Assembly (NCBI GenBank): GCA_964513995.1
Contig: CAZEOQ010000004.1
Span: 23,719 to 87,718, forward strand
Source of the DNA: an uncultured Desulfobacterales bacterium
GTDB taxonomy: Bacteria > Desulfobacterota > DSM-4660 > Desulfatiglandales > JALVZP01
Length of the DNA stretch: 64,000 nucleotides
Direction: 5' to 3'
A program made the position numbers and the translations under genes. Below, piece after piece: positions 2,398 to 16,423 of the stretch. Numbering within the stretch: position 1 is the first letter of the stretch; each line of letters begins with the position of its first letter. The notes beneath the pieces were generated by a model. That model worked only from the letters and a program-made list of their open reading frames with translations, did not search any database and was not told where the DNA came from.

Positions 2398-3102
2398 CTA
2401 AAAGAAAAGTTTCTTTCTTCTGAGTTTTCTTACCTCTTCCTTCCAGGTCTTTTTCTTCTTTCCCTTCTTTTCTTTCAGAGGAAATGTCCCTGCAGAAAAT
2501 GCCTCTTCTATTTTCTTCTTCTCCTTCTTCTTTTCTTCTTCTTCAAAAGGTGGTCCAATAATCCATGATTTATTTATCCATTTGCTCAGATAAAGTTCTC
2601 CAAACTTAAAAAAGACACTTCCATCTTCTTCTGCCTTATGAGCTATGACTTCTAAAAGAATAGGTTTACTGTCTTTTCTTTTTCCTATCCTGAAAGCCAT
2701 ATCTTTTGATTCAGAAAGGATAAGGAATGAGTCAGAAGGGGCTATAAGACCATTCTTTAAGACAAAAGGATAAGCTCTTCTTCTTATGCATGTATAAAGG
2801 AGTTTTGGGATTTCAGAAGCTGGATTTTCAAGGTCTAATTTCCAGTCAAATCCTTTTAATCTTATCCTGTTTTCCTGAATCTCAAGCTCTTCTCTTAAAG
2901 AAGGCTCTGTTAATATGAGTTCTCTTATGTGTGATTCCCTTACATAGGTAAGACCTTCTTCATGAAGTGCTTGAATAAGCTCTTTTAATTTTACAAATCC
3001 TTCCCTGTCAGGTAAAAGTCCAAATTCATCAGGTCTTTTTCCAAGTATGTAAAAGATCATTTTTTTTAGTGTCTCTTTCCTAAACTCTTCCCTTTTACTC
3101 AT
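2398..3102 (-). CDS. Divergent Tpt1/KptA-like (RNA 2'-phosphotransferase fold) protein with a Lys-rich C-terminal tail
   Basis: The protein is collinear with E. coli KptA. FYILGKRPDEFGLLPDREGFVKLKELI aligns with [26 protein letters not shown]. IRLKG aligns with IRAVQGHS. LLYTCIRRRAYPFVLKNGLIAPSDSFLILS aligns with [30 protein letters not shown]. The R-H dyad is replaced by G-K. The tail reads EEEEKKKEKKK...GKKKKTWKEEVRKLRRKK. Confidence 0.6.
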   Translation of the reverse strand: MSKREEFRKETLKKMIFYILGKRPDEFGLLPDREGFVKLKELIQALHEEGLTYVRESHIRELILTEPSLREELEIQENRIRLKGFDWKLDLENPASEIPKLLYTCIRRRAYPFVLKNGLIAPSDSFLILSESKDMAFRIGKRKDSKPILLEVIAHKAEEDGSVFFKFGELYLSKWINKSWIIGPPFEEEEKKKEKKKIEEAFSAGTFPLKEKKGKKKKTWKEEVRKLRRKKLFF

Positions 3103-3782
3103 ACTCTTATCCTCTCTTTTCCAGAGTATACGATAATCCCATCTTTTGCCAGACTTATAAGAGATAATCTTATCTTTTCAGAAAAAAGGATAGCCATGGA
3201 AGTAGGTCTTGAAACAGCAAAGACTATCTTTATTCCTGTCTTTGATATCTTCTTTACCATTTCAAAGCTTATCCTTGATGAAAGAACAGCCAAGAAGACA
3301 TCATCTATTTTATCTTCCAAAAGAGCCTTTCCAATTGCCTTATCAAGTGCATTATGTCTTGCAACATCTTCTGAAAAAGAGATAGGTTCAAGTTTATACG
3401 AAAAAAGCATTACTGCATGAGATGCCCTTGTTCTTTTTCTGAGCTTTTGCCTTTCTTCCATTTCCTTTAAACAGCTTATCAGCTCTTCAAGACTTACCCT
3501 CCCTTCTCTATTCCAACTTTTCTCTCTAACAGACAGAGACTTAACTTTTACTTTAGCCTCCTCATTTTTGACCTCAAAAGAGATAATCTCTTTCTTGTCT
3601 TTTATGATTCCTTCTGTAAAACAGAATCCTAAAATAAGAGGCAGATCTTCACCAGGTGTCCTGAAAAATGTCCTGTATTTTTTTTCGTTCACATAAAAGT
3701 CAAGTGGCTCCTCTTCTATTACTTCTTCTATCTTCTTTTGAACAGCATCTTTTGAAATCAGATATACTTTATGCTTCATCAA
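3099..3782 (-). CDS. fdhD: FdhD-like formate dehydrogenase accessory protein (short form)
   Basis: 227 aa. Recognisable FdhD blocks are EEPLDFYVNEKKYRTFFRTPGEDLPLILGFCFTEGII, HAVMLF, DVARHNALDKAIG and VLSSRISFEMVKKISKTGIKIVFAVSRPTSMAI. The canonical SSCGVCG loop is not visible. Confidence 0.75.
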   Translation of the reverse strand: MMKHKVYLISKDAVQKKIEEVIEEEPLDFYVNEKKYRTFFRTPGEDLPLILGFCFTEGIIKDKKEIISFEVKNEEAKVKVKSLSVREKSWNREGRVSLEELISCLKEMEERQKLRKRTRASHAVMLFSYKLEPISFSEDVARHNALDKAIGKALLEDKIDDVFLAVLSSRISFEMVKKISKTGIKIVFAVSRPTSMAILFSEKIRLSLISLAKDGIIVYSGKERIRV

Positions 3783-11109: not shown

Positions 11110-11981
11110 CTTCTTTCTGCCTCTTGAATAAGATCCTCTCCGTATCTTTCCAAAAATTCCTTTAAATCATCCTTCCAGTTTTTCATAATGCTTACACGAA
11201 ACAATCTCAGTTCTTTATTTTCCAGAAGACAGTTTATAGGTCTCTTTGCAGGAACATCCCATTCTTTTATGCTAAATGTCTCTATCTTTGCAGGAATCTT
11301 TAATGTAGCCAGGATAAACTTTGCCCATTCAGCTCTCGTGCAATATCCTTCAGATGTAACATGAAATATTCCTTTCAGGTTTCTTTCTAAAAGCAAAAGT
11401 ATCTGCTGAGCTACTCTGTATGTCCATGTAGGAGATCCATACTGTTCTCTTATTACTCTTATCTTCTCTCCCTTTATAGCCTTCCTTATTACCCACTTTA
11501 CAAAGTTGTCTCTTTTTCTTCCATAAAGCCATCCTGTCCTTATAATTATGTAATCATCTATGTTATCAATAACTGCCTTTTCACTTTCTGCTTTTGTCTT
11601 TCCATAAAAGGAGATTGGATTTGGTTCGTCATCTTCAAAATATGGCTGTGGAACAGGCTTTTTTCCATCAAATACATAATCACTTGATATATGAACAATC
11701 TTGCAGTCAAATCTTGCACATACCTGTGCAAGATTCCTTGCTCCTTCCACATTTATCTTTTGAGCAACCTCTTTTTCTTTCTCACATCCATCCACATCTG
11801 TATATGCTGCACAGTTTACAACTACATCAGGTGAATTTTTCTGAATTACTTCTATTACCTTATCCCATTTTCTTATATCCATCTCCTCTTTTGTAGGACA
11901 GACAACCTCATGTCTTTCTGAAAACACTTCCTTACAGTCACTTCCAAGCATTCCTGTGCTTCCAACAAGAAGGATCTTCAT
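11106..11981 (-). CDS. rfbD: dTDP-4-dehydrorhamnose reductase
   Basis: MKILLVGSTGMLG (Rossmann fold), HISSDYVFDG, YGKTK and ~290 aa all fit RmlD/RfbD. Confidence 0.85.
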   Translation of the reverse strand: MKILLVGSTGMLGSDCKEVFSERHEVVCPTKEEMDIRKWDKVIEVIQKNSPDVVVNCAAYTDVDGCEKEKEVAQKINVEGARNLAQVCARFDCKIVHISSDYVFDGKKPVPQPYFEDDEPNPISFYGKTKAESEKAVIDNIDDYIIIRTGWLYGRKRDNFVKWVIRKAIKGEKIRVIREQYGSPTWTYRVAQQILLLLERNLKGIFHVTSEGYCTRAEWAKFILATLKIPAKIETFSIKEWDVPAKRPINCLLENKELRLFRVSIMKNWKDDLKEFLERYGEDLIQEAERS

Positions 11982-12415
11982 CTCTTCACCTCCTTAAACA
12001 GATATAAGCCAGTTATAACGAGTATTCCATCTCTTATAAGATACCATATCATGGATATCCTTGCTGATGGATTCTCTTTTAGATCAAAACATCCACATTC
12101 TACATTCATTCCTCTTATTGTGTTTAAAAGGATGGCTAAAAAAAAGCTGATAAGCAAGATGTTTACCAGAAGAATAGCTCCTTCCAGCATGAATCCAGAT
12201 ATGAGACATATCCCTAAGAAAAGCTCCAGCCAGGGAAGAACAATGGCTATAAGATTGGATAATGTATCAGGGAAGAGTCTGTAGTTGTAAACTACTTTTA
12301 AGAAATCTAAAGGAAACCTTATCTTGCTTAGACTTGCATATATAAAGACTGCTCCCAAGAACAACCTCAAAAATGTTACTTTCCTGATTCCAAAGGAAGA
12401 CCAAGAGCTTTCCAT
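11978..12415 (-). CDS. MauE/DoxX-family redox-associated membrane protein
   Basis: 145 aa with four hydrophobic helices and an ECGCF motif typical of MauE-like proteins. It overlaps the rhodanese gene upstream. Confidence 0.65.
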   Translation of the reverse strand: MESSWSSFGIRKVTFLRLFLGAVFIYASLSKIRFPLDFLKVVYNYRLFPDTLSNLIAIVLPWLELFLGICLISGFMLEGAILLVNILLISFFLAILLNTIRGMNVECGCFDLKENPSARISMIWYLIRDGILVITGLYLFKEVKR

Positions 12416-12834
12416 CCCTTTATTCCATCAGGAAGATAATAGACATTTCTGTAACCTAAGGCATACAGTTTAAAAACCAGCTCTTTACTTAATCCACATC
12501 CCTCTTCACTGCAATATACTATTATAGGTCTCTCCTTTGGAAGTCTTATATTTCTTATTTCCTTATCAGGAGGAATATTTATTGCTCCTTTTATGTGTGC
12601 TTTTTTGTAATAATAAGAAGGTCTTGCATCAACAAAGACAGCTTCTTTTGAAAAAAAAAGCCTTTCTGCATCTTTTATGTCTATCCTAAACCTTTCTTCT
12701 GAAGTATCCTCAGAAAACAGATCTATCTTTTGTTTTCTAAATTGATTTACAGACATCCCAGCAAAAAAAGAAAGACTCAATATAAGAAACGCCTGAAATA
12801 TCATGTTTCTTAACGAAAATATCCTTTTACCCAT
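12376..12834 (-). CDS. Membrane-anchored rhodanese-domain protein
   Basis: There is an N-terminal transmembrane or signal segment. The rhodanese core is FVDARP...YKKAHIKGAINIP...IIVYCSEEGCGLS...GYRNVYYLPDGIKGW. The start could instead be the internal MIFQAF at 12804. Confidence 0.75.
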   Translation of the reverse strand: MGKRIFSLRNMIFQAFLILSLSFFAGMSVNQFRKQKIDLFSEDTSEERFRIDIKDAERLFFSKEAVFVDARPSYYYKKAHIKGAINIPPDKEIRNIRLPKERPIIVYCSEEGCGLSKELVFKLYALGYRNVYYLPDGIKGWKALGLPLESGK

Positions 12835-13469
12835 ATCTCTATGTATGGCATCCTGGAATAGCTCGTCTTTATCTTCAGTCTTCCAGCAATCTCTTTGTCT
12901 TCTGAAGGAAACTTTACAAATTTTATCTCATACTTTTTTCCTCTCTCTATTTCTGAAATATAATACTGAACCTTCCTTTTATCCAGATCAAAAGACATTG
13001 GCTTTATAAAAAGAGGTTCTTTTAGATTTGCTTTTATCATTACCCTTGCTTTTATTATATCCGTCTTTCTTCCAATAAGATATACCCTTTTTGGAGAAAC
13101 CTCTATGGGAGATATAACCTCTGCCTTTACTACAAGAAGAAGATTTCTCTGTTCAACATCATCTGTTTCTATAGCAACAGTCCTTCTTATCTCTCCTTCA
13201 TCTTCCGAAGTATCAATGTATACCTTTACCTTTCCTTCTTTTCCAGGAAGTATGGTCTCATCCCATGAGACCACAGTGCATCCTCATCCAGGAACTACCT
13301 TTCTTATACTCACCTTCCTTTTTCCCAAGTTCTTTATGACAAATGTATAGACTATAGGTCTTCCTTTTATAACCTTACCAAGACTTACTTCTCTTTTCTC
13401 TATAAGAAGTCTTCCATAGGAAGGGCTAACAAGAGAGATTAAAAAAAAGAACAAAAGAGCTTTTTTCAT
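12810..13469 (-). CDS. DUF1573 protein with a signal peptide, containing one in-frame TGA (13284-13286), a putative selenocysteine at the C-G-C-T motif
   Basis: ORFs 13469..13284 and 13274..12810 share one frame and are separated only by the TGA. The joined sequence ...FVIKNLGKRKVSIRKVVPG-[TGA]-GCTVVSWDETILPGKEGKVKVYID... is collinear with the DUF1573 core (F.f.N.G...l.I..v..sCGCT......i.PGe.g.i.v). The N-terminal signal peptide is found only in the upstream piece. Confidence 0.7.
13254..13272 (-). promoter_or_regulatory. SECIS-like stem-loop downstream of the in-frame UGA
   Basis: The mRNA reads UGA GGAUGCACUGU [GGUCUCAU GGG AUGAGACC]. The stem is a perfect 8 bp, the apical loop is G-rich, and the stem begins 11 nt after the UGA. 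That spacing matches the minimal E. coli fdhF SECIS. Confidence 0.55.
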
Positions 13470-14419
13470 AGTTCAATCAGTTTTACTCTGTTTCTTCCTT
13501 CTTTTTTTGCTTCATAAAGCATCTGATCTGCTTTTTTTATAAGAATGTCTGAAGTAACTACCTCCTTTTTCTTTTTAGGATCAAATCCAGCTACTCCAAA
13601 ACTTGCAGTAATCCTTATCTTTTCTCCTCCTGCATCTATCAGACTTTCCTCTATACTCCTTCTGATCCTTTCTGCAACTGTTCCAGCTCTGTATGCATCT
13701 GTTTCAGGAAGGACTATAAGAAATTCCTCTCCACCATATCTTGCAATCCAATCTGAACCATCCCTTATCTGCTTTTTTATTATACCTACAAATTCCTTAA
13801 GAACCATGTCTCCTGCTTGATGACCATATGTGTCATTTACATCTTTGAAGTGATCAATGTCACACATAATAACAGACAGAGGATGACTGTATCTTATGCT
13901 TCTTTTTATCTCTGAAGGAAGAAATTCCATAAGATAACCCCTGTTATAACATCCTGTAAGAGGATCTGTTATAGAAAGCCTTCTTATCTTTTCATTTGCT
14001 TCTCTAAGAGATCTTTCAAGCTTAAGTATCCTTATTCCTGTCTTTATTCGTGCAAGGAGCTCTGCCTGATTAAATGGCTTACTTACATAGTCATCTGCTC
14101 CTGCTTCAAGCCCCCTTACTATGTCTTCTTTTGCGTCTTTTGCAGTAATGATAATTATAAAGACATAACCTGGAGATTCAATCTTTCTTAATGTCCTGCA
14201 CAGCTCAAGACCATCTATCTTTGGCATCATCCAGTCCGTAAGAACAATAGGAAAATACTGTTTTTTAAAAATCTCTAAAGCCTCCTCTCCATCCTTTGCA
14301 CTCTTTACGCGAAAACCTTCTTTTTTCAGAAGATTCTCTAAGATGATCCTTGATATAGAATCGTCATCTACTACGAGGATAGGAAAAAGGTGCTTGTTGT
14401 TTTCAGAAATTTCCTGCAT
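13466..14419 (-). CDS. Response regulator with GGDEF output domain (diguanylate cyclase)
   Basis: The receiver domain shows ILVVDDD...TDWMMPKIDG...KP. The GGDEF domain shows DPLTGCYNR...DIDHFKDVNDTYGHQAGD...ARYGGEEF. Confidence 0.9.
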   Translation of the reverse strand: MQEISENNKHLFPILVVDDDSISRIILENLLKKEGFRVKSAKDGEEALEIFKKQYFPIVLTDWMMPKIDGLELCRTLRKIESPGYVFIIIITAKDAKEDIVRGLEAGADDYVSKPFNQAELLARIKTGIRILKLERSLREANEKIRRLSITDPLTGCYNRGYLMEFLPSEIKRSIRYSHPLSVIMCDIDHFKDVNDTYGHQAGDMVLKEFVGIIKKQIRDGSDWIARYGGEEFLIVLPETDAYRAGTVAERIRRSIEESLIDAGGEKIRITASFGVAGFDPKKKKEVVTSDILIKKADQMLYEAKKEGRNRVKLIEL

Positions 14420-14427
14420 ATAGATGA

Positions 14428-15408
14428 TTAGATCTTCTGTATATCTTTTATGAATCTGTCAATTATCTTTTCATTCATCTCTTTTGACAGCTCCTTTCTC
14501 AGTCTTTCTTCAACAACAGCTATAGCCATGTTCATCATCTCGTCTGAAAGCATCCTTTTTGCCTTTTCAAGTTCTGTCTTATAATACAGATTTGCATCTT
14601 CTATCATCTTTTGAGCCTCTTTTTTTGCATCCTCTATTATCTTTTCCTTTTCCCTTTTTGCCATCTCCAGGATACTTTCCCTTATCTGTTCAGCATAAAC
14701 CTCTGCATTACTTATCTTTTCCCTTTGTTCTTCTATTTCCTTCTTTACTCTATTATACTCTTCTTCAAGCTTTGAGATATTTCCCTGGATCTTATCCCTT
14801 TCGTTTTTTAAAAACTCCAGAAGAGGTCTTTTTCCGTAGCGAATAAAAAGGAAGACAATTATTCCAAAGTTTACAAAGAGCATTATGTTGTTATAGATGA
14901 TCCTTGCCTTAGAAGGGGCTGTCTTTGCTGAAAGACAGATTGAAGGAAAGATAAGAAGGATAAGAGAAGCAACTGTTATCTTTTTTATAATCTCTTCTGC
15001 TATCTTTTGAGCTTGCTTTTCCAAACTTGGTCTTACTTTTTCTATCTGCTCCCTAATTCTTTTTTCAGCCTCTTCTTTTATAACAGAAACTTCCTTTCTT
15101 GATTTTTCTAAAATCTTCTCAGCTTCCCTCAATCCTTCTTCTCTTATCCCAGCTCTTTCTTGAGCTGCCTTAAGCTTTGCTTCAGTTTCTATTTTCAAAA
15201 ACTTATCCTTAAGTCTTTCAGCCTCTTCTTTTATCTTTTCAAGCTCTTTTCTTTTATCCTCAATGAATTTTCTTCTTTCTGCCATTATCTTCATTACTGG
15301 TTTAAAAAGGATACGATCCAGGATAAACATAAGTATTAAGAAATGAAGGATCTGAAGGGGGAGTGTGGCATTTATCGTTATAAGTCCTCTTACGGTTTCA
15401 AATTCCAT
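14428..15408 (-). CDS. atpF: F-type ATP synthase peripheral-stalk protein, apparent b'-b fusion
   Basis: 326 aa. Residues 1-145 form a transmembrane segment (LPLQILHFLILMFILDRILFKPV) followed by a long charged helix. Residues ~172-326 form a second transmembrane segment (IMLFVNFGIIVFLFIRYGKRPLLEFL) followed by a second long charged helix. An extra hydrophobic segment at 145-161 links the two halves. Confidence 0.75.
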   Translation of the reverse strand: MEFETVRGLITINATLPLQILHFLILMFILDRILFKPVMKIMAERRKFIEDKRKELEKIKEEAERLKDKFLKIETEAKLKAAQERAGIREEGLREAEKILEKSRKEVSVIKEEAEKRIREQIEKVRPSLEKQAQKIAEEIIKKITVASLILLIFPSICLSAKTAPSKARIIYNNIMLFVNFGIIVFLFIRYGKRPLLEFLKNERDKIQGNISKLEEEYNRVKKEIEEQREKISNAEVYAEQIRESILEMAKREKEKIIEDAKKEAQKMIEDANLYYKTELEKAKRMLSDEMMNMAIAVVEERLRKELSKEMNEKIIDRFIKDIQKI

Positions 15409-15420
15409 CCTTCTTCACCC

Positions 15421-15675
15421 TTATACGACGAATATAAGAAGGAGTGCAATGACGAGAGAATATATTCCTGTAGATTCTGAAACTGCCTGTCCAACAAGCA
15501 TTGTTCTTGTTATAAGTCCTGCCTCTTCTGGTCTTTTTCCTATGGACTCACATGCCTTTCCTGCAGCAAAACCTTCTCCTATCCCTGGTCCAATTGCACC
15601 AAGTCCCATTGCAATTCCTGCACCAAGCATTGCTGCTGCTTTAATAAGATCGTGTCCTGTGATGTTTACAGCCAT
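15421..15675 (-). CDS. atpE: F-type ATP synthase c subunit (single hairpin), Na+-type two-carboxylate signature
   Basis: 84 aa. [57 protein letters not shown] is nearly collinear with the Ilyobacter and Fusobacterium c subunits. Confidence 0.9.
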
Positions 15676-15694: not shown

Positions 15695-16423
15695 TTATAT
15701 TACGACAAATATCAAAACAAGGCTTATTACCATGGCATATATTGCTGTTGACTGTGATACTGCCTGTCCTATAAGCATTACTCTCGTAAGAGTTGCTGCT
15801 ATTTCTGGATTTCTTGCAATCCCTTCACAGCTTTTTCCAGCAGGTATTCCTGCACCTATTCCAGGTCCTATTGACGCAAGTCCTGTGCTCAAGCCAGAGC
15901 TGAGAAGTGCTGCCCATGCAGGATGAAAAGGAACGCCTTTCAGATTTACAAACATAAGCACCAGAGATATGACCATTGCAAATATTGCAGGGGTCTGATC
16001 AACTGCAGATCCTATAAGCATATTAGTAATAAGTTTTCCTGTTACAGCAGGCTGCCTGCTTATTCCAACACAGCATTCTGCTGCAGGAAATCCTCCTCCA
16101 ATACCAGGACCAAAAGCACCAAGTCCCATACATATTCCAGATCCAATAAGTGCAAATGCTTTAAGGAGTGGAGCACCTGAAACATCTAAGAAAAGAAGGA
16201 GGATGGCTATGACAAGTGCAAATATTGCAGAAGTTTCTGCCATTGCCTGTCCTACGAGCATTGCTTTTGCAATGTCTCCTCCTTTTTCAGGTCTTATAGA
16301 GATTGCCTCATTTGCCTTTCCAGCAGTATATCCTTCTCCAAGTGCAGCACCTATTGCACCAAGTCCCATGCAGAGACCTGCACTCAGAAGCTTTGAAAGG
16401 TTTACTGCTGCCTGAACATCCAT
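15695..16423 (-). CDS. Triplicated (three-hairpin, six-helix) F-type c subunit with one conserved ion-binding Glu
   Basis: 242 aa made of three tandem c-subunit repeats of ~80 aa. Each repeat has a GxGxGxG helix 1 and a helix 2. Glu is present in repeat 1 (AMAE63TSAIF). The aligned position is Gln in repeat 2 (AVDQ143TPAIF) and repeat 3 (AVSQ224STAIY). Confidence 0.8.
   Translation of the reverse strand: MDVQAAVNLSKLLSAGLCMGLGAIGAALGEGYTAGKANEAISIRPEKGGDIAKAMLVGQAMAETSAIFALVIAILLLFLDVSGAPLLKAFALIGSGICMGLGAFGPGIGGGFPAAECCVGISRQPAVTGKLITNMLIGSAVDQTPAIFAMVISLVLMFVNLKGVPFHPAWAALLSSGLSTGLASIGPGIGAGIPAGKSCEGIARNPEIAATLTRVMLIGQAVSQSTAIYAMVISLVLIFVVI

Follow-up and report, generated by a model that had tools for sequence, protein, structure and literature searches.

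We analyzed a stretch of 64,000 nucleotides (here called the window) from a metagenomic contig of an uncultured Desulfobacterales bacterium, and in it a gene for a DUF1573 protein that is interrupted by an in-frame TGA. On the minus strand, an ATG at 13469 starts a 61-codon open reading frame (ORF) ending at TGA 13286..13284, past which the same frame runs on (GGA-TGC-ACT-GTG...) to TAA 12812..12810. ORFs 13469..13287 and 13283..12810 of this strand make up a single DUF1573 gene of 219 codons, interrupted only by this TGA, as had been proposed in an earlier, sequence-only reading of the same DNA. The read-through product of 219 amino acids (aa), whose junction reads ...KVVPG-U-GCTVVSWDETILPGK, matches Pfam DUF1573 (PF07610) from residue 23 to residue 118, covering profile positions 3 to 98 of 98 (E = 6.9e-21; 74.5 bits against a gathering threshold of 26.1), and the UGA falls inside the domain match. 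A hydrophobic 19-mer is located at residues 4-5 of the protein, which is presumably exported, judging from its predicted signal peptide (Table 1). We consider it very probable that the UGA at 13286..13284 is a selenocysteine (Sec) codon in one intact secreted DUF1573 protein.

An exhaustive HMMER search among representative sequences, for which the 157-residue part behind the UGA served as query, recovered 972 homologs; a word-based homolog search gave almost nothing, and a scan of the genome collection with the single protein gave only two distant Bacteroidetes homologs of the Cys type. In an alignment of ten full-length homologs (A1), the first Cys of the motif C-[GDS]-C-[TS] stands in the column of the UGA of the window motif U-G-C-T, in agreement with the placement of the UGA on the first Cys of the motif in the sequence-only reading. 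Besides, about 20 of the top 60 homologs begin on Val or Met right after the motif and have lost the N-terminal part. We regard this as a footprint of the UGA, i.e., these homologs are cut exactly behind the motif because a TGA stands at it. Three further peculiarities were seen among the representatives and orthologs. Representative P0051 reads KS-W-AC at the Sec position, where either a TGA was called Trp under genetic code 4 or a real TGG is present; representative P0033 reads PG-LDRAT-ARFD, apparently from a gene call that changes frame in crossing the UGA; and in some Sec-form orthologs (P0006 to P0008 and L050, the last of 347 aa) the C-terminal immunoglobulin (Ig)-like domain is tandemly duplicated, with two LKTNY-type repeats.

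The nearest ortholog (P0005, on locus L089) is 54% identical over the part after the UGA and lies in DNA with a GC content of 28.5%. It carries TGA at the same codon (ITPD-U-GCTVVSFD), in the same gene order as in the window (GGDEF regulator, DUF1573, and rhodanese). A metagenome scan with a tighter alignment (A2) yielded 80 loci that are 37 to 45% identical to the query; TGA occupies the Sec codon in 79 of them and TGC in one, no other disruptions were found, and the protein is conserved on both sides of the TGA. Thus, where scattered disruptions in orthologs would be the mark of a decaying gene, L089 and 79 of the 80 loci keep the same TGA, which is the opposite of the pseudogene pattern. 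A pseudogene, in which a random nonsense mutation hit a Cys-type DUF1573 gene, would fit the two ORFs of 61 and 154 aa in the public annotation of metagenome-assembled genomes (MAGs), as well as the lack of visible Sec machinery genes in the window. Such an origin is nevertheless highly improbable, since the stop falls on the very Cys that Sec replaces in the published family, the orthologs retain it with both flanks conserved, and the hairpin behind it (see below) is selected beyond coding constraint. The chance that the TGA is false, through an error of sequencing or assembly, is practically negligible: at least nine contigs of the species, each assembled separately (two from NCBI MAGs and seven from Logan runs), show it unchanged, and the compared loci of these contigs are 99.5 to 99.9% identical to the window and differ from it at other sites.

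The split could also be taken at face value, with two products made from it: a 61-aa peptide, and a signal-less protein of 154 aa started anew at GTG 13274 from a GAGGA Shine-Dalgarno sequence. Indeed, GAGG overlaps the UGA, the GTG follows 9 nt downstream, and gene callers make the same split in many genomes. The sequence-only reading had deemed the half domain from such a restart unlikely to be functional. The codons for U-G dictate UGA-GG, which is invariant across the family, and the GTG is a conserved Val codon that lies within the stem of the hairpin. AlphaFold modeling (pLDDT, 91.5) of a member of the Cys paralog family gave two β-sandwiches of the Ig-like type, with the C-x-C motif in a tight turn between strands 51-58 and 63-68. 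In the paralog model, the strands on either side of the UGA position (19-58 and 63-118) belong to one domain, as does the Pfam match over residues 23 to 118, so functional half-proteins are ruled out by this model, and neither of the two ORFs would be able to fold by itself. Furthermore, the downstream part has no signal peptide, and the Cys homologs are single polypeptides. We therefore hold two separate products to be very unlikely.

The sequence-only reading had further pointed to a perfect stem with a GGG loop at 13272..13254, beginning 11 nt past the UGA. We confirmed this stem (GGUCUCAU/AUGAGACC), which can be extended to 11 bp (13275..13251). A context of 76 nt folds at -24.3 kcal/mol (z = -2.8 relative to dinucleotide shuffles); of 200 such shuffles, one folds equally well. 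In a recoding test, the 20 codons after the UGA were resampled 3,000 times with the codon usage of the genome itself, keeping the peptide. The local hairpin, at -14.4 kcal/mol against a recoding mean of -4.8, was reached by only 0.03% of the recodings. Since it beats 99.97% of the synonymous alternatives, the hairpin is not a by-product of the amino acid sequence. The same test gave p = 0.0007 for an HdrA(U) gene of the same genome, described below, and p = 0.23 for the Cys paralog of the DUF1573 protein.

According to published criteria, a bacterial Sec insertion sequence (bSECIS) has a loop of 3 to 9 nt, a stem of 4 to 16 bp, and G in the first two loop positions, lies 16 to 37 nt from the UGA, and has a minimum free energy (MFE) of ≤ -7.5 kcal/mol (PMC13188914). 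The window hairpin is in accordance with all of these: the loop is GGG (3 nt), the stem is 11 bp, the distance from UGA to loop is 19 nt, and the energy is -14.4 kcal/mol. It resembles the Escherichia coli fdhF-type SECIS and the bSECISearch consensus in its start 11 nt past the UGA, its small loop with G-G, its 19-nt distance, and an MFE below -7.5 kcal/mol, although it differs from the fdhF type in having a perfect stem and a triloop, no bulged U, and no Rfam match; SelB binding is a prediction. It is thus plausible that the window hairpin is a bacterial SECIS.

In the orthologs, the 63 nt from the UGA on align without gaps over 65 distinct sequences. The ortholog stem, in columns 13-19 and 29-35, keeps the register of the window stem in columns 12-22 and 26-36 (i + j = 48 in both), and 85% of its cells are paired, compared with 42 to 59% with slid partners. 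Two-sided changes were seen at the column pair 19-29 (CG, 22; UA, 15; UG, 10). Behind it the orthologs form a second hairpin, CCCCCC-GGN-GGGGAGGG, over the P-P-G-G-E-G codons (alignment A3, columns 36-53, L010-L087), which is 91% paired and has its GGN loop about 39 nt past the UGA. Across the ortholog family, the stability of either region exceeds that of synonymous recodings, with mean z values of -1.7 for the first and -2.1 for the second. In the main clade, this second structure may serve as the principal SECIS or as one half of a two-hairpin element. The first hairpin is the dominant one in the window, where the second (13232..13249) is degenerate. A covariance model built from 64 metagenomic sequences, with the window left out, found only the proposed Sec site in the 64-kb window (39.8 bits; E = 6.6e-8), with all seven pairs of the first hairpin formed. 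It scored L089 at 52.8 bits and a Cys form (L009) at 17.8 bits, with 5 of the 7 pairs broken, and it had no match on the Cys paralog of the window's own species; this model is partly driven by coding similarity and counts as supporting evidence only.

We also looked for signs of Sec use elsewhere in the organism. By GyrA, its relatives are uncultured "Deltaproteobacteria"/Desulfobacterales MAGs (76 to 77% and 65% identity), and that deltaproteobacterial group is known for large selenoproteomes (PMC1976440). The DUF1573(U) gene is present in the MAG assemblies GCA_053940125.1 and GCA_053987455.1, and cluster members of the Cys-type homolog P0009 (47% identity) lie on contigs of the same two assemblies (contigs ...008.1 and ...035.1 of the former; ...017.1 and ...012.1 of the latter). 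This Cys paralog, at L101:10001-10651 (+) and L103:10001-10651 (+), has the motif C-D-C-T and no hairpin after it, and sits between a nitroreductase gene and a Flp/Hdr/AFOR cluster. In that cluster, an HdrA-like gene (L101:11487-14546, minus strand) has been called as pieces of 70 and 866 aa that are joined by an in-frame TGA (14336..14334), likewise in L103 and in L090 to L092. The context, FPTNECSV-U-ILAPK, corresponds to the CxxU motif at which HdrA is known to carry Sec, and the TGA is followed by a GC-rich stem of 8 bp with an AGGC loop 22 nt downstream. Beside it, a FlpD/MvhD-like gene (L101:10648-11508, minus strand; same in L103) has an N-terminally truncated annotation; the frame continues upstream through a TGA at about 11424, reading MAKTTFKPRIIGFLCYW-U-AYGAADLAG, i.e., the CxxU site of that family (FLCYW-U), with a GGU-loop hairpin downstream. 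Both genes are mis-split selenoproteins. They belong with the HdrA and FlpD/MvhD selenoproteins (CxxU) of Deltaproteobacteria and methanogens and are like the DUF1573(U) gene in having an in-frame TGA at a conserved Cys and a hairpin with GG or GU in the loop 20 to 37 nt downstream, but they are unrelated cytoplasmic Fe-S/flavin proteins and bear only on Sec decoding by the organism. That these MAGs also encode HdrA(U) and FlpD/MvhD(U) argues strongly that the organism would have a working Sec system. The sequence-only reading had taken an fdhD-like gene of the window as its hint of Sec use, which is weak compared with these two genes: the FdhD-like ORF (3099..3782, minus strand) has a TTG start, scores 132.2 bits against a TIGR00129 cutoff of 140.9, and matches well only over its C-terminal 130 residues or so, and the window contains no formate dehydrogenase gene.

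TGA is the ordinary stop of 20 of the 60 window ORFs, and a genome-wide reassignment of UGA was ruled out on this ground; no other credible TGA-split frame was found in the window. Downstream structures can stimulate read-through in general. Read-through of the DUF1573 UGA without Sec, whether by near-cognate insertion of Trp or Cys or stimulated by the hairpin, would be compatible with the Trp of P0051 at the Sec position and with a Sec machinery that was not directly seen. We judge it unlikely, since the residue is a redox-type Cys position in a family that is listed among selenoproteins (PMC9312934, PMC13188914), the MAGs also contain HdrA and FlpD/MvhD as classic Sec genes whose TGA stands where Sec is known to occur, and the hairpin, with GG in its apical loop, fits the SelB-type consensus; besides, the Trp of P0051 may be just a code-4 gene call. 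If the UGA is decoded as Sec, the single gene would encode an exported DUF1573 protein of two Ig-like domains, with Sec at codon 62 and a vicinal selenol-thiol center, U-G-C, in a β-turn of the first domain. The recoding would be local: the 11-bp hairpin with its GGG loop would act as a bacterial SECIS and recruit SelB with Sec-tRNA(Sec) to UGA 62, and the other UGAs of the genome would remain stops.

The sequence-only reading had regarded DUF1573 as a candidate new selenoprotein family, a claim that does not stand. Among the prokaryotic selenoprotein families given in two recent reviews is a "DUF1573 domain-containing protein" with PF07610 and the motif UGC (PMC9312934, PMC13188914), and the DUF1573 row of the 2022 review cites Zhang and Gladyshev 2007 (PMC9312934). 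In Table 2 of that study, on novel selenoproteins, OS_HP2 is given with two Sec genes from the delta-1 and delta-4 symbionts of Olavius (PMC1976440). The only NCBIfam match of the window protein is NF041425, "OS_HP2 family (seleno)protein" (84.9 bits; E = 3.7e-24). We infer from the shared citation and this NF041425 result that the DUF1573 "UGC" row is OS_HP2, which no source states outright. Against NF041425, L089 scores 96.7 bits, four metagenomic Sec orthologs score 111 to 115, and Cys forms score 67 to 106. The window protein has the U/C-G-C motif at the conserved DUF1573 position, which is a membership feature of NF041425. Like OS_HP2, it combines PF07610 with the same Sec position and the U-G-C motif, and a leader, the DUF1573 domain, and a second Ig-like domain with an LKTNY-like end follow one another; the downstream rhodanese-MauE module is likewise shared by certain bona fide members, such as L070 (113 bits). 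Unlike OS_HP2, the window protein is encoded in a genome rich in AT (36% GC), and its first hairpin is far stronger, with a GGG triloop, whereas the strong second hairpin of the family is degenerate in the window. Thus, the window gene represents no new family but a divergent member at the edge of one predicted before, OS_HP2/DUF1573 "UGC".

Several observations weigh against a Sec-decoded UGA or against parts of that interpretation. No ORF resembling selA, selB, or selD turned up in the window, and no tRNA-Sec in the window or the loci that were fetched. It is by MAG binning that HdrA(U) and FlpD/MvhD(U) are linked to the gene, and the binning is supported by composition: a near-identical contig with the same paralog locus (L090) matches the window in GC content (0.364), and the two correlate at 0.989 in their tetranucleotides, compared with 0.992 between the window halves. 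As to the conservation of the hairpin, to which the sequence-only reading had attached its proposal, the structure does recur in the same register with 85% pairing, but the first hairpin is weaker in the orthologs, with a 9-nt loop that lacks a leading G, and at 17-31 a standard pair is missing from 27 of the 65 sequences, mostly with C·A in its place. Selection in the orthologs is stronger on the second hairpin, and the exact SECIS is not uniform across the family. Rfam gave no SECIS-like match at gathering or permissive thresholds and only noise, although it models such elements poorly. The NF041425 score of the window protein is below the curated cutoff of 100 bits, and experimental Sec evidence for any family member is not evident from PMC9312934 and PMC13188914. 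Foldseek with the Cys paralog model returned only generic PapD/ASH/HYDIN Ig domains and the uncharacterized structure 2qsv, with no catalytic analogue, and a PDB sequence search gave nothing significant. The functional model given below, finally, is drawn from gene context. Taken against these points, the TGA kept in orthologs, a hairpin beyond coding constraint, and its accordance with the bSECIS criteria still bear out the proposal of the sequence-only reading that the UGA encodes Sec behind a SECIS-like hairpin.

Table 1. Features of the DUF1573(U) locus (window coordinates)
Feature	Position	Strand	Basis
Complete candidate selenoprotein gene, 219 codons, UGA (proposed Sec) at codon 62, stop TAA 12812..12810	12810..13469	-	Sequence reading, Pfam match
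Predicted signal peptide MKKALLFFFLISLVSPSYG, Sec-pathway (secretion) type, no lipobox	13413..13469	-	Sequence reading; homologs with equivalent N-terminal leaders
DUF1573 (PF07610) Ig-like domain, residues 23-118, spans the UGA	13116..13403	-	Pfam; AlphaFold2 (AF2) model of Cys paralog
UGA in frame at codon 62, the proposed Sec residue and first of the motif U-G-C-T (13286..13275)	13284..13286	-	Cys alignment, ortholog TGA
Second Ig-like domain, residues 119-219, ends in family signature LK(T/I)xYxxxP	12813..13115	-	Alignment, AF2 model
SECIS-like hairpin, 11-bp stem UGUGGUCUCAU / AUGAGACCAUA, apical loop GGG (13264..13262)	13251..13275	-	Folding, recoding test, covariance model
Weak second hairpin, 5 bp, 8-nt loop, over L-P-G-K-E-G codons	13232..13249	-	Folding
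Rhodanese-domain protein, N-terminal membrane anchor, Y-C-x4-C loop, downstream partner 1	12376..12834	-	
MauE/DoxX-family membrane protein, conserved C-G-C-F motif, downstream partner 2	11978..12415	-	
Response-regulator/GGDEF diguanylate cyclase, upstream gene, also upstream in L089	13466..14419	-	

The gene is tightly packed between its neighbors (Table 1). The TGA stop of the GGDEF regulator overlaps the ATG of the selenoprotein gene (ATGA; 13466..13469), and the rhodanese ORF overlaps its end (12810..12834), the first rhodanese ATG lying 25 nt inside. These two overlaps suggest one operon with translational coupling. A rhodanese gene follows the DUF1573 gene in 10 ortholog loci, with MauE next in 6 of the 10, and the Cys motifs are kept throughout (Y-C-x4-C in rhodanese and C-[GS]-C-F in MauE). 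In one closely related group (L070:211-5476 and L084:225-4402), genes for CcdA/DsbD_TM, an SBF transporter, DUF1573(U), rhodanese, MauE, and TauE/SafE lie on one strand; the CcdA, SBF, and TauE neighbors are confined to this group, and CcdA was not found in the window. Rex-like and RNase H-like neighbors were seen at other major-clade loci, by eye and in representative sequences only. A link to cytochrome c biogenesis (ResB/CcsA) was considered and ruled out, as neither ResB nor CcsA occurs nearby in any ortholog locus.

By analogy, the DUF1573(U) protein, the anchored rhodanese (YCx4C), and the MauE/DoxX protein (CGC) could tentatively be viewed as an extracytoplasmic selenol/thiol-disulfide or persulfide relay with the U-G-C turn as its reactive center. 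The Ig-like domain would then serve with the presumably cotranscribed rhodanese and MauE/DoxX in a shuttle role comparable to that of DsbD-alpha. The likeness to DsbD-alpha/CcdA relays lies in an exported Ig-like domain with a paired Cys/Sec center that is encoded with Cys-pair membrane proteins, and in the DsbD_TM/CcdA gene just upstream in one ortholog group. There is no sequence or specific structural match to DsbD-alpha, and the motif is a C-x-C in a turn, unlike the cysteine pair of DsbD-alpha; the analogy is functional only. More speculatively still, and with rather low probability, the trio might constitute a new envelope redox pathway of anaerobic bacteria of the sulfate-reducer type, in which the U-G-C Ig-like domain would shuttle reducing equivalents or sulfur/selenium species between the membrane protein and periplasmic targets.

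Apart from this locus, the window contains unusual ATP synthase genes on the minus strand. A 242-aa ORF (15695..16423) joins three hairpins of the ATP synthase c subunit into a single chain, with three PF00137 stretches, and adjoins a normal c subunit of 84 aa (15421..15675). By eye, the ion-binding Glu is present in the first repeat and in the single c subunit, and Gln is present in the other two repeats. We take the triple-hairpin ORF to resemble the fused c subunits of some Na+-ATPases. A 326-aa ATP-synt_B protein (14428..15408) has two PF00430 stretches and is apparently a fused b-b' subunit, of which a sister MAG has a 330-aa variant.

The case opens no new category of system and is an ordinary one for specialists. 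Its immediate consequence concerns annotation: the DUF1573(U) gene is split in public MAGs and should be merged as one selenoprotein, and the same error affects about 20 of the top 60 representatives. The OS_HP2/DUF1573 family has been a computational prediction only since 2007, and this locus offers handles for a first experiment, i.e., an unusually clean candidate SECIS (GGG loop on a perfect stem of 11 bp), a Cys paralog, and a conserved three-gene context. If our interpretation is true, a Sec form and its Cys paralog exist side by side in an AT-rich lineage, which would make a natural comparison between the two possible.

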